From the NCBI RefSeq assembly GCF_042688385.1, contig NZ_JBHUPY010000007.1:322110-386109 (forward strand): DNA of 64,000 bases, read 5' to 3'. Made by a program: the position numbers and the translations under genes. Below, piece by piece: positions 5,296 to 40,906 of this stretch. Origin of the DNA: Herpetosiphon sp. NSE202 (lineage in GTDB: Bacteria > Chloroflexota > Chloroflexia > Chloroflexales > Herpetosiphonaceae). How positions within the stretch are numbered: position 1 is the stretch's first letter; each line of letters starts with the position of its first letter. The notes under the pieces were generated by a model. It was not told the DNA's origin and did no database searches. It was given only the letters and a program-made list of their open reading frames with translations.

Positions 5296-5465
5296 GCCAA
5301 AACCTCCAGCGCAAGAGGTTGCAGCAAGCTCACCAATTGCGAACTGCGATCAGCGAGTCAAGCGCAAAGTGCCTGATACTATTGGGCTATAGTATAACGC
5401 AGCTAGTTGAGGATAGCACTAGTACTACGCCGTTATCCGTACTAAAGAACTAGTGCACAGAGCTG

Positions 5466-5506
5466 AGGCCAGCAAAAAGCCCGGACTCGTGTGAGTCCAG
5501 GCTTTG
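5466..5506 (-). terminator. putative intrinsic terminator downstream of the zinc-ribbon gene
   Basis: Inverted repeat cccggactc-gtgt-gagtccagg. On the minus strand the hairpin is followed by CTTTTTGCTG. Confidence 0.4.
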
Positions 5507-5539
5507 CTTATAAGAGTGAGGATTGATTCCCCAGGGTTC

Positions 5540-5950
5540 TTACCAGCGGTTCGAGCGTGATGATGATTGTTGGCTTTGGAAGCAATCGCGGCAGTAAACT
5601 GGCTTGTCGCCACGTGGTACGAATGGCACTTGTGCAGGGCCGCCACATGATGAACAGGTGGTGGTGTGCATTTCGCGTTGACCGCGATCTGAGCTGAAGC
5701 CACCACGATCTGAGCTGTAACCACCACGGTCTGAGCCATAGCTGCTGCGGCTGTAGCCACCACCGCCGCCACGGCTTGAGCTTTCGTAGCCACCGCCACC
5801 GCGATTTTGTTTGCGGGCTTGGCGGCAGTTTGAACAGCGAGTTGGCTCGTTGTCAAAGCCCTTTTGAGCGTAAAATTCTTGTTCGCCAGCGGTAAATACG
5901 AACTCGTTGCCACAATCGCGGCAGTTCAACGTCTTGTCGGTAAAGCTCAT
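5540..5950 (-). CDS. double zinc-ribbon (CxxC...CxxC) protein with a central Gly/Arg/Ser-rich RGG-like low-complexity linker
   Basis: 136 aa. N-terminal CRDCGNEFVFTAGEQEFYAQKGF...CSNCRQ and C-terminal CSSCGG...CRDCFQ, separated by (GGGGY/SSDRGG)n repeats. GGAGAAACAAGCTA precedes the ATG. The overlapping 5425-5913 ORF in the other frame is Ala-rich and judged spurious. Confidence 0.7.
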   Translation of the reverse strand: MSFTDKTLNCRDCGNEFVFTAGEQEFYAQKGFDNEPTRCSNCRQARKQNRGGGGYESSSRGGGGGYSRSSYGSDRGGYSSDRGGFSSDRGQREMHTTTCSSCGGPAQVPFVPRGDKPVYCRDCFQSQQSSSRSNRW

Positions 5951-6233
5951 TAGCTTGTTTCTCCAACTATGGTAAGGGATTCCAATTGTTTCAGGTTGGA
6001 GTCACGAAGCTCAGGGAAGAGATTGCATATCCACTCAGTCCGAGGTAATGTGAGGAACCAAACCATGTCAACGCAATCATTGTACCAAAACTATCTACAA
6101 TTTACAAGAGGCAAAATGTGCTTTTTTGCCACGAGTTTAATCATGCGGGGTAGCTAGGGGTGAAAAAGTGGTTAAACTATGGTGGCAAAGGGTAGGTAGC
6201 TAGTTAGCCCACCCTACCCTTTACCCAACATGC

Positions 6234-7370
6234 TTAGCTGCCGAAGATTTTGCTCCAGAAGCCACGCTCTTTTTGCTCGAAATGATCCATGCCCATGGTC
6301 TCGCCAAGTTTCTGGAACAGTTCGCGCTGGTCTTCGTTGAGTTTGGTTGGCACGCGCACTTTAACCACGACCATTTGATCACCACGGCGGCCTAAGTTGC
6401 GTCCCGATGAATCGATGTAGGGCACGCCTTTGCCGCGCAAGGTAAAGACTGTCCCATCTTGAGTGCCCGCTGGCACATTCAACGGCTCGTCGCCATCAAC
6501 GGTTGGCACGTTTAATTGTGCACCCAAGGCTGCTTGCACAATGTTAATTGGCAGTTGCAACAGAATATTGTTCTCTTCACGCACAAAGAAATCGTGTGGC
6601 TGCACCCGTAAATTAACATAGAGATCGCCAGCAGAGCCACCACTTGGCCCGCTATCGCCAGCACCACCAATTCGAATCCGCATGCCATCATCAACCCCAG
6701 CTGGTACGGTCAATTTGCGCTTGACGGTTTCACGAACGCGGCCTTCGCCGCGACAGGTTTTACATGGAATCGGAATAATCACGCCGCGCCCAGAACATTG
6801 ATCACAGGTGGTGACGGTGACCATATTCAGGAACGTGCGCACCCGCATCTCACCTGAGCCTTGGCATTTAGGACAGCGGGTTGGCTCGGTGCCAGGTTCA
6901 GCGCCGGTGCCGCCACAAGGCCCACACGATTCAAGCCGCCGGTAATCAAGCTCTTTTTCGGTGCCAAAAATTGCTTCTTCAAAGCTAATCACCAAATCGG
7001 CGCGTAAATCGGCTCCTTGGCGCGCGCCACCACGGTTGCCGCCGCGTGCACCTTGGCCAAAGAAGGCATCGAAGATGGTGCTAAATGGATCACCGCCAGC
7101 GCCACCAAAGCCCGAAAATGGGTCGAAGCCTTGGCCGCTACTGCCAGCGTGACCAAATTGATCGTACATGCGGCGCTTTTGATCGCTCGAAAGCACCTCG
7201 TAGGCTTCGGTTGCCTCTTTGAATTTGTTTTCGGCTTCTGCATTGCCGGGGTTGCGGTCGGGGTGATATTGCATGGCCAACTTGCGGTAGGCCTTTTTGA
7301 TCTCGTCAGGTGAGGCACTTTTGCCCACACCTAGTACTTCGTAGTAGTCGCGTTTTGCCTCAGTTGCCAT
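6234..7370 (-). CDS. dnaJ: molecular chaperone DnaJ
   Basis: J-domain (YYEVLGV...HPDRNP), G/F-rich region, four CxxCxGxG zinc-finger repeats and a C-terminal domain; 378 aa. Confidence 0.95.
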
Positions 7371-32945: not shown

Positions 32946-35366
32946 TTGCTCAATTACGCTAGTTTCGTTCATCCTATGGTGAGAGTTATGCATTGGTGCT
33001 CGTTGATTCCAAGCACATTAAGCGATGCTCAAGCACGCCAACAGTTATTGCTGGTGATGCTGAGGGGTGTCTTTTTTGTTTTTACGCCCGTTCAAATTCT
33101 GTTAAGTTTGATGCAGGCAAGCATTAGCTGGCCCCGCCTAGCAGTCATTGGGGTGGTCAATCTGATCTGTGTTTGGCTCTGGAGCTTAGTCAAACGCAAC
33201 CAGCTTGATCACGCAGCCAAGCTGTTTGTTGGCTTATTTTGGCTAGTATTTAGCGGTTTGATGCTCACCACTGGCGGAATTGCGTCGCCTTCGATCATTG
33301 CCTATTTTTTTGTTATTTTTGCTGCCAGCTTTTTGCTCAGCGAACGCGCTAGCTTGCTGGTTGCCCTGCTCAGTTTAGGTGTAACTTTAGCCGCAGTAGT
33401 GCTCGAAAGCCAGCAACTGCTGCCAAAGCCATTAATTGTTTATACGCCATTTTCGCGCTGGCTCAGCTATAGTTTTTACTTTGGCTTGATGCTGGTTTTT
33501 CAAATTGTCAGTGGGCGCTTGGTTTATAACGCCTTGCAAAAAGCCCAAACTGAGTTGAACGAACGCCAACGAATCGAAGCTGAATTACGCCATTCTGAAG
33601 CCCAATATCGCCTACTTTTCGAAACTACGCCAATTGGGATTGGTATGGCCAAAATGGATGGCACAGTCATCGCGGTCAATCCAACTGGCAGCCACATGCT
33701 GGGCTATAGCAATGAAGAATTTATGCAATTCAAGCTCGAACAGTTGTATGCTTATCCCAATCAGCGTGCCGACATCATTCAAATGGCCCAACAACACGGC
33801 AAAATTCGCGATTTTGAAATGGCGTTTCGCCACCGTGATGGTGATTTAGTGTGGGCCTTGGTCAATGTTGATCTGCAATCGATCAACGATGAGTTGGTGA
33901 CCATTTCGACCTTGCGCGACATTACCGGCCAACGCACTGCTGAACAGGCTTTACGTACCAACGAGGCTCGTTTTCGCGCAATGTTTGAGCACGCAGCAAT
34001 TGGCATTGTCCTAATTGATACCAATGGTGTGGCCTTCCGCGCCAACCCGACCGCCTGTATGTTGTTCAATTTTAGCGAACGCGATTTGCAACACGAGCCG
34101 TTTATCAACTTTACCCATCCCGATGACCGTGAATTTGAAATGAGCTTAAACCAAGAGTTGCTTGCTGGGCAGTGCGATTCGTATCAAATTGAAAAACGCT
34201 TTTTACGCTCCGATGGCGGGATTGTGTGGGGTCGTTTGTGTGCCTCGTTGGTGCAAGATAGCGACGATAACCCACTCTTTACCATCGCCATGATCGAGGA
34301 TCTTAGCTCATACAAAGCAACCCGTGAGCAGCTCGACCTGCAAATGCAAACCCTCACTGCGCTCTACTATAGCTCGCAACGCTTAACCACCAAGCTCAAA
34401 GTCGAAGAACTGGCCCGCGATGTTGCGGATAGCTGTGTTAATATTTTTGGCGCGCAACGGGCTTGGCTCACGCTCAATCAAAGCGATCAATTGCTTGACC
34501 ACACCAATCACAACGACCCGCAGCTCCCAAGCATCCAAATTGAAATAGAAACAGTCGAGCCGCTTGACGACAGTGTTAGCCAGACCATGGCTTTTCCATT
34601 GGTCAGCCATAATCACACCTTTGGCATGCTCAATTTGCAAAGCAACCAAGCCGATTTCTTTCAAGCTGAACGCAACGATATGCTGCAAACCTATGCCAGC
34701 CAAGTTGCCGCCGCCTTGGATAATGCGCTGCTCTTCCAGCATTTGCAACAGATCAATCATGAAGTTACCAGCGCCTACGATATGACGATTGAAGGCTGGT
34801 CGCGGGCCTTGGATCTGCGCGATCACGAGACCGAAGGCCATACCCAGCGCGTGACGTGGATGACCGAACAGCTTGCAGCAGCAATGGGCAAATTCAGCGC
34901 AGAGGAATTAATTCATGTGCGGCGCGGCGCGTTGCTCCACGATATTGGCAAAATGGGCGTGCCCGATGCAATTTTGCACAAGCCAGGCCCGCTCGATGAT
35001 GATGAATGGGTGATTATGCGCCGCCATCCAGTCTATGCCTACCAGTTACTCGCGCCAATTCTCTATTTGCAAGGCTCGCTCGATATTCCGCATTATCATC
35101 ATGAACGCTGGGATGGCACGGGCTATCCCAAGGGCTTGCAAGCAGAAGCGATTCCCTTGGCTGCACGGGTGTTTGCCGTGGTCGATGTTTGGGATGCCTT
35201 GCGCTCTGATCGTCCGTATCGCAAGGGCTGGTCGGATCAGCGGATTATGGAATATCTCGCAACGGAATCGGGCAAGCATTTTGATCCAATGGTGGTTGAG
35301 GTATTTTTGCAATTGCTTAAAACTATGAGCGTTGCCGAGGTACGCAACCCAGTCAGCGAGCAATGA
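32946..35366 (+). CDS. membrane-associated PAS/PAC-GAF sensor fused to an HD-GYP c-di-GMP phosphodiesterase domain
   Basis: 806 aa. N-terminal multi-TM region, two PAS/PAC-like segments, a GAF-like segment, and C-terminal HDIGKMGVPD...HHERWDGTGYPKGL (the HD...GYP signature). Confidence 0.85.
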   Translation: MLNYASFVHPMVRVMHWCSLIPSTLSDAQARQQLLLVMLRGVFFVFTPVQILLSLMQASISWPRLAVIGVVNLICVWLWSLVKRNQLDHAAKLFVGLFWLVFSGLMLTTGGIASPSIIAYFFVIFAASFLLSERASLLVALLSLGVTLAAVVLESQQLLPKPLIVYTPFSRWLSYSFYFGLMLVFQIVSGRLVYNALQKAQTELNERQRIEAELRHSEAQYRLLFETTPIGIGMAKMDGTVIAVNPTGSHMLGYSNEEFMQFKLEQLYAYPNQRADIIQMAQQHGKIRDFEMAFRHRDGDLVWALVNVDLQSINDELVTISTLRDITGQRTAEQALRTNEARFRAMFEHAAIGIVLIDTNGVAFRANPTACMLFNFSERDLQHEPFINFTHPDDREFEMSLNQELLAGQCDSYQIEKRFLRSDGGIVWGRLCASLVQDSDDNPLFTIAMIEDLSSYKATREQLDLQMQTLTALYYSSQRLTTKLKVEELARDVADSCVNIFGAQRAWLTLNQSDQLLDHTNHNDPQLPSIQIEIETVEPLDDSVSQTMAFPLVSHNHTFGMLNLQSNQADFFQAERNDMLQTYASQVAAALDNALLFQHLQQINHEVTSAYDMTIEGWSRALDLRDHETEGHTQRVTWMTEQLAAAMGKFSAEELIHVRRGALLHDIGKMGVPDAILHKPGPLDDDEWVIMRRHPVYAYQLLAPILYLQGSLDIPHYHHERWDGTGYPKGLQAEAIPLAARVFAVVDVWDALRSDRPYRKGWSDQRIMEYLATESGKHFDPMVVEVFLQLLKTMSVAEVRNPVSEQ

Positions 35367-35400
35367 AAAACAGGCGAGCTAGCACACTAGCCCGCCTGTT
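35367..35400 (-). terminator. putative intrinsic terminator for the minus-strand DUF4097-like gene; also lies 3' of the convergent HD-GYP gene
   Basis: caggcgagctag-cacac-tagcccgcctg hairpin, followed on the minus strand by TTTTTCA. Confidence 0.4.
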
Positions 35401-35409
35401 GAGCAAATT

Positions 35410-36972
35410 TTAGCCTAATGCTTCGAGCAAGAGCGCTGCTTCGTCGGCGCTAATCTTGCCACTTTGCACCATCTTCAAAATCGCCAAGCGTTCTTGGGTT
35501 TTATCAACTGCTGGAGCTTCGGCTGCTGGAGTTTCAGCTGCTTGGGCAACAGGTGCGGCCTGCGCTGCAGCTGCTGCTTGCTCTGGCGTAATCCGCACGG
35601 TATCGCCGGTGTAGGCCACGTGTTGGCTTGATGATGATCCATCATCTTCACTAATCGAGACGCGATGTGGCGCATTTGGCGCTGCTGGTGGCGCTGGCGC
35701 ATTTGGCGCTGCTGGTGGCGCTGGCGGGCGTGGCGCATTTGGCCGAGCAACATTTTTCTCGATATTGCCCAAGGCTTGGCCAATCGCCTCGTAAGCGCGG
35801 CTAATGCCTTCATCAGCAGCTCGTTTGGCTTGCTCTTTCAAGCGCTCGATTCGCTCAGGGTCGAAACGATATTCGCGTTCGTTGATCCGCACGCTGACAC
35901 GTTCGGCGGCTTTGGCAGCCCGTTCAGCAGCGCGTTCGGTGGCTTGGCGGGCGCGTTCAGCAGCCTTTTCGCCCTTGCCACCATGCCAATCGCGGCTGAG
36001 TTCGCTGAATTGGGCGGCAATATCACGGCCCATCGAGGCTAGGTCATCGGTGAAATCGCGAATTGCGCGGTTGAAATCATCGCTCTTCCAATTCCAGTTG
36101 CCGCCCCAATTGCCGCTGCCCACGCTCTTCGATTGGCCTGCTGCCGCAGCGCCACGAATGCTCAAATCGCCTTGTACATTGACTTCGAGCCGAGCCGAGC
36201 CATTGCCCCAGGTCAGGCTAATGCCACCAGGCTCACGGTCGGCCATGCCGGAAACATCGCCTTGCACAAAGCCGTTGACGGTCAAATTGGCATCGTCGGT
36301 AACTTCCAAAATCAGATCGCCACTCGCATTGGCGTGATAGACGTGCTCAGGGAACCAATTGACACCTAATTTCAAATCGCCATCAACGTGAATTGGCGCA
36401 AGGCTCTTGATTAGGCCACGCAAGGTTGCATCGCCACTCACCCGAGTAACTGCCACATCACCAGTAATATCGCTAGCGCTCAAATCGCCATGAATATTGC
36501 TAATCGTCAGGTTATGCACTTGGCCGATTTTTGCATCGCCATTGACATTTTTGACTACCACAGTATCAGCGTTCTCATAGATTTTGAGATCGCCATCAAT
36601 GTTGGCGATGGTAATGTTGGCGCTTTTGGTTAATACCGCATCGCCCTGCACCGAAGCACCTTCGAAGGTTTGCACATCGCGAATATTAAGATCGCCTTCA
36701 ATTTGGCGGGTGTGAACTGCCGCAATCCCACTAATATCCAGGTCGCCTTGCACTACTTCTAGGGTCAAGGTTGTGCCATGGGGCAAGCGCAATTCCAAAT
36801 CATCGGAGCAGCGCTCGATCGAAAGATGGCCTTCTTGGGCGCGAAAACTAATCTCATCTTCAGCAACATCAAACCAGGCTTCGGCGAGATCGTGGGCAAT
36901 AACCCGTAAGTTTCCTTCACAAATGCGAACCGCCACGGTTGGATTCGTACCAATATTAATACGTTGTTGCAT
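35410..36972 (-). CDS. DUF4097-like (toast-rack / putative adhesin beta-strand repeat) protein with a Pro/Ala-rich linker and a C-terminal SHOCT/DUF1707-like peptide module
   Basis: 520 aa. Many GDLxI / GDAxL beta-strand repeats (VVQGDLDISG, ANIDGDLKIY, NVNGDAKIG...), then a coiled ERAAERAAKAAER segment, a PAPPAAPNAPAPPAAPNAP linker, and a C-terminal QERLAILKMVQSGKISADEAALLLEALG. Confidence 0.7.
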   Translation of the reverse strand: MQQRINIGTNPTVAVRICEGNLRVIAHDLAEAWFDVAEDEISFRAQEGHLSIERCSDDLELRLPHGTTLTLEVVQGDLDISGIAAVHTRQIEGDLNIRDVQTFEGASVQGDAVLTKSANITIANIDGDLKIYENADTVVVKNVNGDAKIGQVHNLTISNIHGDLSASDITGDVAVTRVSGDATLRGLIKSLAPIHVDGDLKLGVNWFPEHVYHANASGDLILEVTDDANLTVNGFVQGDVSGMADREPGGISLTWGNGSARLEVNVQGDLSIRGAAAAGQSKSVGSGNWGGNWNWKSDDFNRAIRDFTDDLASMGRDIAAQFSELSRDWHGGKGEKAAERARQATERAAERAAKAAERVSVRINEREYRFDPERIERLKEQAKRAADEGISRAYEAIGQALGNIEKNVARPNAPRPPAPPAAPNAPAPPAAPNAPHRVSISEDDGSSSSQHVAYTGDTVRITPEQAAAAAQAAPVAQAAETPAAEAPAVDKTQERLAILKMVQSGKISADEAALLLEALG

Positions 36973-36984
36973 CGCTCAGACTCC

Positions 36985-37347
36985 TTATTCAACCACAATT
37001 TCAATACGTTCGCCGTCTTCAAGATCTTCCATATCAACGATTTTGCCAGTCATACCGCCGCGAATTGCTTCCAACATTTCGTCAAAGTTAAGCGTCGTAT
37101 GTTTGTTGGAAGCAAAGCGTGCACCGAGTTTCAAGCCAATGCTAATCAAGCCAACTGGAATATTGACATTGATTTTGTGATGGTTGGACTTCAAATCGGT
37201 TACCCGAATGCGCACCCATTGAGCACGCACTGGGCGAGAAATTCGATTGTTTGGCTCCATCACGCCAAGCAAACGTGCGCCTTCTTCGGCAGTCAATTGG
37301 CCATTTTCAATCAGGCGCAAAATGCGCATGCGTTCTTCGGTTGCCAT
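36985..37347 (-). CDS. small protein carrying the same N-terminal EERMRILRLIENGQLTAEEGARLL module
   Basis: 120 aa. Separated by 12 nt from the downstream DUF4097-like gene and by 11 nt from the upstream DUF2089-like gene, so a three-gene operon is likely. Confidence 0.6.
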   Translation of the reverse strand: MATEERMRILRLIENGQLTAEEGARLLGVMEPNNRISRPVRAQWVRIRVTDLKSNHHKINVNIPVGLISIGLKLGARFASNKHTTLNFDEMLEAIRGGMTGKIVDMEDLEDGERIEIVVE

Positions 37348-37358
37348 TGAATACCTTC

Positions 37359-37718
37359 CTAGCCTTGCAGCAGTTTGAGCGCTTCTTCAGCACTCAGTTC
37401 GCCGGTTTCAAGTTGCCGCAACACCTCGCGCGAATCAGGTCGCGAAATTGAGGGCGGCGCACCCAAAGCAGCAGCGATTTCGTCCATGCGCATTCGCGCT
37501 GTCGTATACGACACATTCAACGAGCCTGCGACTTGGTTGACGTTGCCCCGATGTTGGGCCAAGAGTTCCACAAAGCTGAGTTGTTCGCGGGTCAAACGTC
37601 CCAAGCGCCCGAGCGTAAATTGGCCTTCAATCGCCGTGTTGCAAATTGCACATTCCAACCGAGTGCTGGTGAGTTCGCCCATACAAACTGGACATTGAGT
37701 CAAGATAGGATTCATCAA
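37359..37718 (-). CDS. DUF2089-like zinc-ribbon plus HTH protein, putative regulator of the triad
   Basis: 119 aa. N-terminal CPVCMGEL...CAICN zinc ribbon, a central HTH-like segment (LSFVELLAQHRGNVNQVAGSLNVSYTTARMRMDEI), and C-terminal LRQLETGELSAEEALKLLQG. An AT-rich promoter region with TTGACA lies upstream. Confidence 0.65.
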   Translation of the reverse strand: MMNPILTQCPVCMGELTSTRLECAICNTAIEGQFTLGRLGRLTREQLSFVELLAQHRGNVNQVAGSLNVSYTTARMRMDEIAAALGAPPSISRPDSREVLRQLETGELSAEEALKLLQG

Positions 37719-37840
37719 TACCTCGCGAAGTATCAGTTCATCTACGAAAAAGTGTAACCTATCCTGATAATAATTGTCAATCTATCTTATATTAATTTTA
37801 GATTAGAAAGTTTTAGCTAAAAAATGGCTGGTATTAAGAT

Positions 37841-38122: not shown

Positions 38123-40906
38123 GTGGAACCGATATATATCGCCTTGGACTTGGAAACAACTGGCTTAGAACCAGGGCGCGATGAGATTATTGAAGTTGGG
38201 GCCGTTAAATTTCGTGGCAACGAGGTTCTCGAAACCTACCAAACCTTGGTCAAACCCAAACAGGTGCTACCAATCAAAATTGCTCGTTTAACTGGCATCG
38301 ATGCTCACGAATTAACCACCGCGCCAAGCTTTAATAGCATTGGTGGCCAAGTAGCCAAATTTCTCAAAAGCTATCCAATTATTGGTCATTCGGTTGATGG
38401 TGATTTGCGCTTTTTGCAGCAACAAGGGCTAAAAGTCACCCAGCCGCATTACGATACCTTCGATTTGGCGACCTTGTTGATTCCGCAATTGCCCAATTAT
38501 TCGCTTTCAACGATCGCCGAACATTTGCAAATTGCCCATCCTGATGCCCACCGCGCTTTGGCCGATGCCGAAGCGAGTCGCTTGGTGTTTACTGCGTTGC
38601 TCGATAAATTGGCTGAATTATCGGCTGCCGAATTGCATAACATCGCTCAAACTACCCAAAAATTGCAATGGCCGCTGGCTAAATTATTTGGCGAAATTGC
38701 CAAACGCCGCGTGCAAACGGTCTGGCAAGCACCAATTGAATTTCAGCCCAAACCAATTGTGCGTCCGATTGCGCTTGAACCAACTGGCAACCAACAATTG
38801 CTCGATAGCCAAGCGATTGGCGCAATGTTCGGGGCCGAAGGTGGCTTTAGCCGCATGTTTCCTGGCTACGAGCCACGCCAACCACAAATCGAAATGACGG
38901 TTGCTATCGCCGAAGCGCTCAATCAAGGCGATACCTTGATGATCGAAGCGCCAACCGGCACGGGCAAAAGCTTGGCCTACCTCGTGCCCGCCGCCCAATG
39001 GGCACGCCAACGCGGCGAACGGGTTGTCATCTCGACCAACACGATTAACTTGCAAGATCAGCTGTGTTCCAAAGATATTCCGACTGTGCAAGCGCTCTTG
39101 GCAGAGCATCCCGACCAAGCACCAGCGTTGCGCGCCGTGCAGCTCAAAGGTCGCAGCAACTACCTATGTTTGAAGCGCTACGAAGCCTTTCGCGCCCAAC
39201 CAGACCACAACGAAGATCAAACCCGTGGCTTGTTGAAGTTGCAACTGTGGTTGCCATCAACCAACAACGGCGACCGCTCGGAATTAATGCTGATTCAAGG
39301 CGAACAGCAGGTTTGGAATAATGTTAATGTTGATCCCGACCAATGTTTGCGCCAACGCTGCTCGCTCTACAACGAATGTTTCTTCTTCAAGGCCCGCGCT
39401 GAGGCCGAAAACGCCCATATTGTGGTTGCCAATCATGCCTTGTTGATGGCCGATGTTAAATCGCCTGGCATTTTGCCACGCTACGATCATTTGATTATCG
39501 ACGAAGCGCATAACCTCGAAGATGTTGCCACCGACCAATTGGGCTTTCGGATTTCGCAACACAGCTTAAACAGCTTGCTCAACGATATGCACAGCACAGG
39601 CGGCGCACGTTTAGCGAGCGGCGTGCTCAACGAGTGGCCGCAACTCTTCCGTTTGAGCACGGTCGACCATAAAGAGCAACGCAAACTCGAAGATATTAGC
39701 GCCGATGTGCGCCCGAATGTTGAAAAAGCCCGCGATGCAGCCCAACAATTGTTCAGCATTTTCAACGATATTATGGCCAAAGATCGCAGCGTAACCCAAT
39801 ACGATCCTCAATTGCGCATCACTACCAAAATTCGCCGCCATGCTGAATGGAGCCAAGTTGAGCAAACATGGGAAAATTTGAGCATTAATTTGCGCAAAAT
39901 TGGCGATGGTTTTGGCAAACTCCAAGCAATTTTGGATAATCTCGAAGGCCGCGATATTAATGGCTACGACGATTTGGTGATGCGGGTCAAGGGCATTGTC
40001 AATGCCTGCGGCGAATTACAACGCCAATTTGATCTGGTGATTTATGGCAACGAAGAGACCGTGGCCTGGCTCACCGCCGATCAACGCCGCCGCGAATTGT
40101 TGGTCCAAGCAGCGCCAATTCATGTTGGGCCGTTGCTCACCGAAGATCTTTGGATGAAGAAACGGGCCAATATTTTGGTTTCAGCCACGCTTTCGGTCAG
40201 TAATAGCTTCGATTACCCCAAGCAACGCTTGGGCTTAGATGAAGCCACAGCCATGCAGCTCGATTCGCCATTCGATTACAGCAAATCGACCTTAATCTAT
40301 TTGCCAACCGATATGCCCGAACCCAATGAGCGCAATTATCAACGCGCCATGGAAGACGCATTAATTAATTTATGTAAAGCGACTGGTGGCCGCACCTTAG
40401 CCTTGTTCACCGCCAATACATCGCTACGCCAAACCTACCATGGCATTAGCGAAAGCCTTGAGCAAGCGGATATTTCGACTTTAGCGCAAGGCATGGATGG
40501 CTCGCGGCGTTCGTTGATCCAACGCTTCAAATCTGACCCACGCACGGTTTTGTTGGGTACAGCCTCGTTTTGGGAAGGCGTGGATGTGGTTGGTGATGCC
40601 TTGAGCGTGTTGGTGATTACCAAGTTGCCCTTCAGCGTGCCCAACGACCCAGTGTTTTCGGCGCGATCCGAGGGGTTCGACGATGCTTTTGCTGAATACT
40701 CAGTGCCGCAAGCGATTTTGCGCTTCAAACAAGGCTTTGGCCGCCTCATTCGCTCCAAAGATGATCGCGGGATTGTGGTGGTGCTTGATCGGCGCTTGCT
40801 CAGCAAAAACTATGGTCGCCAATTCCTCGAATCATTGCCCGATTGCACCGTGCAGCGCAAGCCGCTTTCTGAGCTCGCAACTACTGCGGCCCGCTGGTTG
40901 GTTTAA
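38123..40906 (+). CDS. dinG: DinG-family ATP-dependent helicase with an N-terminal DnaQ-like 3'-5' exonuclease domain
   Basis: GTG start with GAGGAG 5 nt upstream. N-terminal IALDLETTGL (Exo I motif); Walker A APTGTGKSLAYL; DEAH box IIDEAHN; a Cys-rich segment (FeS-like CLKRYEAF...CSLYNECFFF); C-terminal helicase motifs. 927 aa. Confidence 0.85.
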   Translation: MEPIYIALDLETTGLEPGRDEIIEVGAVKFRGNEVLETYQTLVKPKQVLPIKIARLTGIDAHELTTAPSFNSIGGQVAKFLKSYPIIGHSVDGDLRFLQQQGLKVTQPHYDTFDLATLLIPQLPNYSLSTIAEHLQIAHPDAHRALADAEASRLVFTALLDKLAELSAAELHNIAQTTQKLQWPLAKLFGEIAKRRVQTVWQAPIEFQPKPIVRPIALEPTGNQQLLDSQAIGAMFGAEGGFSRMFPGYEPRQPQIEMTVAIAEALNQGDTLMIEAPTGTGKSLAYLVPAAQWARQRGERVVISTNTINLQDQLCSKDIPTVQALLAEHPDQAPALRAVQLKGRSNYLCLKRYEAFRAQPDHNEDQTRGLLKLQLWLPSTNNGDRSELMLIQGEQQVWNNVNVDPDQCLRQRCSLYNECFFFKARAEAENAHIVVANHALLMADVKSPGILPRYDHLIIDEAHNLEDVATDQLGFRISQHSLNSLLNDMHSTGGARLASGVLNEWPQLFRLSTVDHKEQRKLEDISADVRPNVEKARDAAQQLFSIFNDIMAKDRSVTQYDPQLRITTKIRRHAEWSQVEQTWENLSINLRKIGDGFGKLQAILDNLEGRDINGYDDLVMRVKGIVNACGELQRQFDLVIYGNEETVAWLTADQRRRELLVQAAPIHVGPLLTEDLWMKKRANILVSATLSVSNSFDYPKQRLGLDEATAMQLDSPFDYSKSTLIYLPTDMPEPNERNYQRAMEDALINLCKATGGRTLALFTANTSLRQTYHGISESLEQADISTLAQGMDGSRRSLIQRFKSDPRTVLLGTASFWEGVDVVGDALSVLVITKLPFSVPNDPVFSARSEGFDDAFAEYSVPQAILRFKQGFGRLIRSKDDRGIVVVLDRRLLSKNYGRQFLESLPDCTVQRKPLSELATTAARWLV

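Follow-up and report, generated by a model that had tools for sequence, protein, structure and literature searches.

A Herpetosiphon operon whose DUF2089-type regulator, small two-domain protein and toast-rack protein share a SHOCT-like module

Three minus-strand open reading frames (ORFs) in a 64,000-nucleotide (nt) stretch of the genome of Herpetosiphon sp. NSE202 (contig NZ_JBHUPY010000007.1, positions 322,110 to 386,109; hereafter the window) form a tight operon in which every product carries one copy of the same module, or tag, of about 28 amino acids (aa). The copy lies at the C-terminus of a DUF2089-type regulator (gene A), at the N-terminus of a small protein (gene B) and at the C-terminus of a soluble toast-rack protein (gene C). 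Judged from its sequence, the operon represents, in Herpetosiphon, a DUF2089/Toastrack/SHOCT-like cluster that runs through the Chloroflexota and belongs to the class of predicted Psp/Lia-like stress-signalling modules. The domain identities of the three proteins are assigned with high confidence. As for what the proteins do together, the most likely function would be to hold the regulator by way of the shared tags and to let it go under the control of stress, a tentative proposal to which we give a little less than an even chance.

Although SHOCT and SHOCT-like domains occur very widely, they have no demonstrated molecular function, and toast-rack proteins such as LiaX are clinically relevant through daptomycin resistance. 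A compact, all-soluble operon with one tag per component, in a culturable Herpetosiphon, is a clean model for the function of the tag, be it heterotypic assembly, binding of a common partner or membrane targeting. The shared module, the regulator architecture and the type of neighbourhood are already catalogued (Pfam/InterPro; PMC11237479), and the additions made here are modest: an unmodelled domain family (the B-core), its paralogue with two transmembrane (TM) helices, a linkage to GNAT acetyltransferases and the acidic chemistry of the tag.

Results

A SHOCT-like module common to the three proteins

The sequence-only reading of this DNA had quoted one peptide from each ORF (EVLRQLETGELSAEEALKLLQG in A, EERMRILRLIENGQLTAEEGARLLGVM in B and QERLAILKMVQSGKISADEAALLLEALG in C) and had taken them for variants of a single element of SHOCT or DUF1707 type. 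The three ORFs and their minus-strand coordinates proved correct and the peptides exact to the letter, and the kinship between them withstood reciprocal searches. When each single module was run with phmmer against the 259 six-frame ORFs of the window, the other two copies were the best non-self matches (E = 2.3e-5 to 0.034), with the best noise at an E-value of at least 0.62. A hidden Markov model (HMM) built only from B-family modules outside Herpetosiphon found C at 3.6e-10 and A at 0.071, the latter standing at the top above the noise (0.35).

The Pfam model of the module is PF22746, "SHOCT-like_DUF2089-C", which corresponds to the InterPro 'YvlB/LiaX N-terminal domain'; in UniRef, the B and C orthologues of H. 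aurantiacus are likewise labelled "YvlB/LiaX N-terminal domain-containing protein". With a gathering threshold of 27 bits, this model matches B (39.0 bits, 5.4e-10, aa 4-33) and C (38.8 bits, 6e-10), whereas A, at 22.1 bits, falls short of the threshold. The model is named after the very position that the module occupies in DUF2089 proteins such as A, which the reciprocal searches tie to B and C. The SHOCT-like part of the earlier proposal therefore stands, whereas the canonical SHOCT (PF09851) and DUF1707 (PF08044) models gave no match at E <= 1 to A, B or C, a bound to be read with the fact that HMMER filters discard most matches above E ~0.1. Canonical SHOCT is likewise a two-helix element; it is about 30 aa long, shows no indels, has a conserved Gly in its turn and a conserved acidic residue, and sits at the termini of many unrelated proteins (PMC3581485).

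The AlphaFold2 (AF2) models fold the module of B (helices 2-14 and 20-30) and that of C (helices 491-503 and 509-519) into a pair of short helices with a Gly-containing turn between them. The turn Gly is at least 90% conserved, and residues E21 E22 G23 A24 R25 L26 of the B module are invariant among 28 homologues. All module classes are net acidic (mean charges -2.8, -2.2 and -2.8, ranging down to -7) and lack a basic or aromatic patch, while their helices show hydrophobic stripes. When solved structures were searched by sequence with profiles of B, of C and of the module, nothing significant came back; the sole marginal match was 8raj_B, a chain of 49 residues deposited as 'Trimethylamine monooxygenase', with E = 1.4e-3 over 17 residues that correspond to the second helix of the module (ADGEISADEALSMLDAI). 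A genuine match would make this chain the only solved structure holding part of the module.

An alignment of 241 modules of the A, B and C classes was used to compare the copies with one another. Identity between classes was 0.35-0.41 for modules of the same locus and 0.34-0.42 for modules of different loci, compared with 0.45-0.51 within a class. Because cross-class identity is equal within and between genomes, each copy of the tag has been kept up separately, and the three classes are, by these comparisons, old, class-specific lineages. The same equality rules out gene conversion, concerted evolution or a recent duplication of the three tags. The class consensus sequences are given in Table 1 with the coordinates of the features.

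Table 1. Features of the operon and its flanks (window positions) and consensus sequences of the module classes
Feature	Position	Strand	Evidence or remarks
Gene A, DUF2089-type regulator	37359..37718	-	119 aa as listed; Zn ribbon aa 9-38, HTH aa 42-87, module aa 94-119
SHOCT-like module of A (C-terminal)	37362..37439	-	PF22746 (below the gathering threshold) and reciprocal phmmer; in 60/61 A homologues
Gene B, 120 aa: SHOCT-like module, disordered linker, B-core	36985..37347	-	PF22746; AF2 mean pLDDT 78
SHOCT-like module of B (N-terminal)	37258..37344	-	PF22746, reciprocal phmmer
B-core, ~80-aa ββααββ domain	36988..37218	-	no Pfam or NCBIfam model
Gene C, 520-aa soluble toast-rack protein	35410..36972	-	AF2, fold match, family Pfam hits
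Toast-rack β-solenoid, aa 1-275	36148..36972	-	AF2 pLDDT about 90-97; PDB fold matches
Conserved helical middle region, aa 299-407	35752..36078	-	AF2 helices 299-329, 334-356, 372-407, pLDDT 50-79
Pro/Ala-rich disordered linker, aa 409-488, with duplicated PAPPAAPNA	35509..35748	-	pLDDT < 50
SHOCT-like module of C (C-terminal)	35413..35502	-	PF22746; AF2 helices with pLDDT > 90
Promoter-like site: -35 TTGACA, 18-nt spacer, -10 TACACT	37751..37780	-	consensus scan, 10/12 matches
Intrinsic terminator: 14-bp stem (8 GC pairs), 4-nt loop, T-tract	35369..35400	-	directly after C, before the convergent HD-GYP gene
Class A module consensus			Rr.iL.dL..G.isaeeA..lL; from the 241-module alignment
Class B module consensus			eERm.ILkmie.GkI.AeEga.LL; from the 241-module alignment
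Class C module consensus			eErl.ILkMle.gkIs.eeA..LL.ALeg; from the 241-module alignment
PAS-PAS-GAF-HD-GYP sensor gene	32946-35366	+	convergent with C
DinG-like helicase with N-terminal RNase T-type exonuclease domain	38123-40906	+	divergent from A
HTH, helix-turn-helix; pLDDT, predicted local distance difference test score.

Domain composition of A, B and C

For gene A, the Zn_ribbon_DUF2089 model (PF22747; 2.7e-10, 40.6 bits, cut-off 27.6) and the DUF2089-HTH model (PF09862; 3.8e-13, 49.3 bits, cut-off 33.4) both match above the Pfam cut-offs, in agreement with the earlier view of A as a DUF2089-like regulator. The CPxC...CxxC cysteines (C9, C12, C23, C26) and the HTH residues are at least 90% conserved among 60 A-family members. 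By these domain matches, A qualifies as a bona fide DUF2089 regulator composed of a Zn ribbon, an HTH and a SHOCT-like module. Its start is probably the ATG at 37715 (118 aa) and not the TTG at 37718, because of the spacing to the ribosome-binding site (RBS) and the alignment of the family. DUF2089 genes also occur in leaderless-bacteriocin loci.

Gene B had been described as a small, adaptor-sized protein; the size is right, but the protein holds a second conserved domain whose family comprises about 1,900 clusters. Beyond the module and a linker (33-38), the AF2 model shows strands 44-51 and 57-64, helices 65-78 and 88-96, and strands 101-108 and 113-119, which make up a compact ββααββ fold (aa 44-119) that we call the B-core. 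Its conserved residues are W44, R46, D51, K58, P64, G71 and G101, together with a C-terminal D-x-EDGE[RH]-VE motif. A Pfam scan over the B-core of 22 members gave noise only, and an exhaustive profile search collected 1,918 representative clusters, 777 of them at E <= 1e-10; the hits with a named source are all Chloroflexota. The B-core is invariably C-terminal, in proteins of 71-273 aa, and the SHOCT-like module precedes it in 127 of 148 top representatives (sequences from the best 150).

Most clusters hold a second B paralogue, whose long form consists of tag, acidic linker, two TM helices and B-core; the two helices lie between tag and core in 24 of the 26 long B paralogues. With two TM helices, tag and core come to lie on one side of the membrane, and the presence of the helices in nearly all long forms puts the system, in the lineages concerned, at the cytoplasmic membrane face. 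Paralogues of this kind, about 210 aa long, were seen in Anaerolineae-type clusters (loci L036, 4300-4923; L052, 4348-4977; L053, 3002-3664; and about 20 others). The Herpetosiphon operon has none.

Gene C had been called DUF4097-like. The window protein itself does not match PF13349 (Toastrack DUF4097) at E <= 1; support for the assignment comes from its family and its fold. Homologues at 40-43% identity carry PF13349, which is present in 17 of 31 family members (best 3.4e-12), while PF22746 is present in 31 of 31. The best PDB matches of the AF2 model in Foldseek are DUF4097/DUF2807 "putative adhesin" structures, namely 4QRK (3.9e-5), 3LYC, 3PET, 4YGU, 4OPW, 3JX8 and 3LJY. From family and model together, C is a divergent DUF4097 toast-rack solenoid. 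No TM segment or signal peptide was predicted in A, B or C; the maximum KD19 hydropathy, used for the TM call on C, was 1.03.

Two other identities of C were considered and rejected. The resemblance to bactofilins and to T2SS-N amounts to sub-threshold Pfam noise (E = 0.18 and 9e-4), and no bactofilin appeared among the fold matches. The secreted adhesin implied by the old DUF4097 label does not suit a protein that lacks a signal peptide and TM segment and shares its operon with a DNA-binding protein bearing the same tag.

The region of C that follows the solenoid is formed by charged helices, in which W293, R374 and A386 are nearly invariant, and recurs in 68 ORFs of the loci described below. 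The linker leading to the tag contains a tandem duplication of PAPPAAPNA (two copies; 35680-35745, aa 410-432), and C orthologues differ in length at the linker (520 aa here, 514 aa in H. aurantiacus), whose length appears free to drift. In the metagenome-assembled genome (MAG) MFD03066 (L003), the C orthologue is split into ORFs of 58 aa and 452 aa (5376-5552 and 5555-6913), either a pseudogene created by a frameshift or stop or an assembly error.

Operon layout and control signals

Only 11 nt separate A from B and 12 nt separate B from C. An RBS precedes each gene, of the GGAG/GAAGG type for B and C. The TTGACA and TAnACT hexamers of the promoter-like site upstream of A are invariant across six Herpetosiphonaceae loci in which the flanks have diverged. 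Because of the gene spacing, the promoter and the terminator, the operon is supported as one transcription unit read from a conserved sigma-70-type promoter.

Two further signals were noted upstream of A. An inverted repeat, AATCTA-N14-TAGATT (37779-37804), abuts the -35 hexamer in Herpetosiphon species, with AATCTAA-N12-TTAGATT as its counterpart in H. aurantiacus, and is a weak candidate for an operator through which A would regulate its own gene. In the 5' untranslated region, the RBS of A is overlapped by a near-perfect palindrome of 16 nt, ATACYTCGCGARGTAT (37718-37733, minus strand), which H. aurantiacus shares (L002, 4613-4628) and which might bind a protein or form a hairpin that occludes the RBS.

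Conservation of the gene set across Chloroflexota

The closest relatives of the window are within the genus, B being 99% identical to its H. giganteus and 98% to its H. aurantiacus DSM 785 counterpart. Scanning genomes with the B profile gave 352 confirmed loci, of which 80 were retained for neighbourhood analysis, 51 of them with full flanks (at least 4 kb upstream and at least 2 kb downstream). Neighbours were typed with tag-removed queries, which avoids false links through the common tag. All 80 loci are labelled Chloroflexota bar one, a MAG labelled Methanosarcinales. That contig (L061, JAIWHF010000009.1) holds a full A-C-B'-B cluster in a layout near-identical to that of an Anaerolineales MAG (L065), and is probably a mis-binned Chloroflexota contig and not an archaeal transfer.

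Every one of the 263 typed A-, B- and C-like genes in these loci lies on the same strand as B. Co-occurrence in other genomes, a check that the sequence-only reading had put forward, was confirmed: A and C both accompany B in 35 of the 51 full-flank loci; A only was found in 7, C only in 3 and neither in 6. The genes come in several orders: ABCB (15 loci), ACBB (12), ACB (9) and, in Herpetosiphonaceae, ABC (4). A varied order with a kept gene set argues for selection on the set. The module itself is carried by 60 of 61 A, 123 of 132 B and 58 of 66 C proteins of the loci.

Directly upstream of the short B, on the same strand, 31 of the 80 loci have a GNAT acetyltransferase of about 330 aa (for example L016, 3967-4953; L008, 4058-4996; L020, 3994-4971), and 6 of the 80 have an MFS transporter in that position (for example L041, 3710-4981; L053, 3674-4957). 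The recurrence of the GNAT gene directly upstream of B suggests a functional pairing of the two, with B as a possible substrate or regulator. Neither the GNAT nor the MFS gene of these extended clusters is present in the window, and by gene content the Herpetosiphon operon is the minimal, all-soluble version of the cluster.

Relation to known systems

Ravi et al. (mSystems 2024; PMC11237479) split DUF2089 into Zn ribbon, HTH and SHOCT-like parts, listed a "DUF2089 -> SHOCT-like+X" dyad (Bacillus), and made two proposals: that Toastrack serves inside the cell, beneath the membrane, as a platform for assembly coupled to transcription, and that SHOCT-like domains are inner-leaflet anchors. The link of such modules to Lia/Psp-type envelope stress is a prediction published there. 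Their neighbourhoods show the same regulator architecture as A, and Toastrack and further globular domains that bear a SHOCT-like domain at the N- or C-terminus. The dyad layout, a DUF2089 gene and then one for a SHOCT-like plus an unassigned domain, recurs here, with A followed by B after the 11-nt gap; the likeness is one of gene layout. In contrast, DUF2089 in their four-gene context is accompanied by a sigma factor, by a zf-HC2 anti-sigma receptor and by a membrane-anchored Toastrack, none of which occurs in this operon, whose Toastrack is soluble and bears its tag at the C-terminus. The accessible part of their supplement holds no Herpetosiphon row and no Toastrack-then-SHOCT-like architecture.

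LiaX of Enterococcus and YvlB of Bacillus subtilis are likewise soluble, lack secretion signals and unite a SHOCT-like domain, a helical region and a DUF4097 toast-rack in a single protein, and their toast-rack part is a negative regulator of a stress pathway. In LiaX, the β-rich C-terminal toast-rack domain inhibits LiaFSR, and the binding of daptomycin and cationic peptides by the helical N-terminal domain depends on charge (PMC6936494). In C the order is reversed, with the toast-rack first and the tag last. The NCBIfam equivalogs fall far short of their cut-offs (LiaX 15.5 bits against 350, LiaG 24.6 bits against 285), and no PspC (LiaY/YvlC), holin-like (LiaZ/YvlD) or LiaFSR gene was found in the operon or its flanks. 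The regulator here is a DUF2089 protein in the same operon. Because the scores lie below the cut-offs, the order is reversed and the partners are missing, the operon, though homologous in parts to the LiaX/YvlB systems and similar to them in its proposed working, has no orthologue of LiaX, LiaG or YvlB.

An anti-phage defence system was also considered and rejected: PADLOC gave only a 13.5-bit LmuB fragment match for A, and nothing for B or C.

Discussion

The function that we tentatively put forward is the sequestration and release of A through the tags. As its domain family implies, A would bind DNA. In the cytoplasm, C would offer the β-sheet surface of its solenoid as a protein-docking platform and hold its tag on the long, flexible Pro/Ala tether, a picture drawn from the fold and the published proposal. 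The tags would serve as a common docking element that unites A, B and C, either tag to tag or on one shared surface. Within the complex A would be kept inactive, to be freed when the toast-rack or the B-core senses a perturbation, and the freed regulator would then act on its own operon and on other targets. The related clusters would tie the complex to the membrane through the 2-TM B paralogue; in Herpetosiphon all parts are soluble. The logic proposed here, a regulator held by a stress-sensing partner of its own operon, is that of PspA-PspF, of anti-sigma/sigma pairs and of partner switching. The parallel is a functional analogy only, with no homology, and the docking element here would be a two-helix tag on every component.

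Several observations weigh against this proposal. The trio is not obligatory, A and/or C being missing within ~5 kb of B in 16 of the 51 full-flank loci. PF22746 scores the A copy of the tag at 22.1 bits (1.1e-4), under the gathering threshold. The search for an operator gave only the genus-level 6-bp inverted repeat described above, which is not conserved in more distant Herpetosiphonaceae loci. The membrane component is missing from the Herpetosiphon operon, so that the link to the envelope is one of homology only. Finally, in the only experiment on it, the canonical SHOCT domain did not self-oligomerise in vitro (PMC3581485). This result speaks against a simple tag-tag model and, with the absence of matches to the canonical SHOCT and DUF1707 models, makes the earlier description of the module as an oligomerisation element doubtful.

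A specific form of docking would be a heteromeric helical bundle of the A, B and C hairpins, an 'assembly code' that makes the operon a soluble, membrane-independent partner-switching device in which the toast-rack scaffold and the B-core sensor may control the Zn-ribbon/HTH regulator. We regard this form as unlikely; if true, it would be the first defined molecular function for the SHOCT-like superfamily.

The alternatives differ in what the tag is supposed to bind. It might be the membrane: following the published prediction of Ravi et al. (PMC11237479), each hairpin would bind the inner leaflet independently, and A, B and C would be co-localised without being bound to one another by their tags. 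The hydrophobic stripes on the helices fit such a role, and the 2-TM B paralogue of related clusters means that the system operates at the membrane in some lineages. However, acidic modules without a basic or aromatic patch are a poor fit to anionic bacterial lipids, A has to reach DNA, and a tag kept on the 2-TM paralogue would be redundant if it were only an anchor. For these reasons we favour protein-protein docking over lipid anchoring and consider independent anchoring rather improbable, with some chance left to it. Alternatively, the tag might bind only itself, for instance dimerising A for DNA binding, so that its presence in all three proteins would reflect domain shuffling without cross-talk. 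HTH regulators are usually dimers, A has no other obvious dimerisation element, and oligomerisation was the original hypothesis for SHOCT (PMC3581485). Yet the experiment on the canonical domain cited above was negative, and three to four tagged genes kept on one strand throughout the phylum despite rearrangement are hard to explain without a shared function of the tag. Self-association alone seems to us quite unlikely.

Two further explanations carry much less weight. By analogy with LiaX, the acidic modules might bind cationic amphipathic antimicrobials, with C or a fragment of it acting outside the cell. In LiaX, the N-terminal helical part contains a domain of this type and relies on charge to bind daptomycin and LL-37, and LiaX is surface exposed though it has no secretion signals (PMC6936494). 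Against such a sentinel role stand the same tag on the DNA-binding protein A, the lack of a signal peptide or TM segment in all three proteins, the LiaX score so far below its cut-off, the reversed domain order and the missing PspC and holin-like partners, which together leave it very improbable. A chance resemblance between short Ala/Glu/Leu-rich helices could be argued from the shortness of the module and the sub-threshold A copy. It can be practically dismissed, and we count it as refuted, since reciprocal single-sequence searches set the three copies apart from all other ORFs, a curated Pfam model matches all three, and the module alignment shows conservation at more than 240 orthologous positions.

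Flanking genes and repeats

The sequence-only reading had also pointed out that the operon adjoins a gene for an HD-GYP sensor. The adjacency is real, but a functional link was rejected: the gene is convergent with C, the terminator lies between them, and the two are neighbours only in three close Herpetosiphon loci, that is, within the genus. On the other side, the adjacency of A to the DinG-like gene reaches a 67%-identical Herpetosiphonaceae MAG (L005).

The divergent region between A and DinG contains GCTCyCCCTCGCCCGCrTTCAGTGG twice (37926 and 37973), as well as copies of a decamer, GGGGTGAGGG, that occurs 10 times in the window against 0.06 expected (14687, 31687/31779, 37842/38011, 40910/41064, 55138 and 59417/59539). 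The copies are mostly arranged in intergenic DNA as inverted pairs with 90-170 nt between partners. By this arrangement, GGGGTGAGGG looks like a family of palindromic repeats dispersed among the intergenic regions of Herpetosiphon, similar to repetitive extragenic palindromes (REP) or miniature inverted-repeat transposable elements (MITE).

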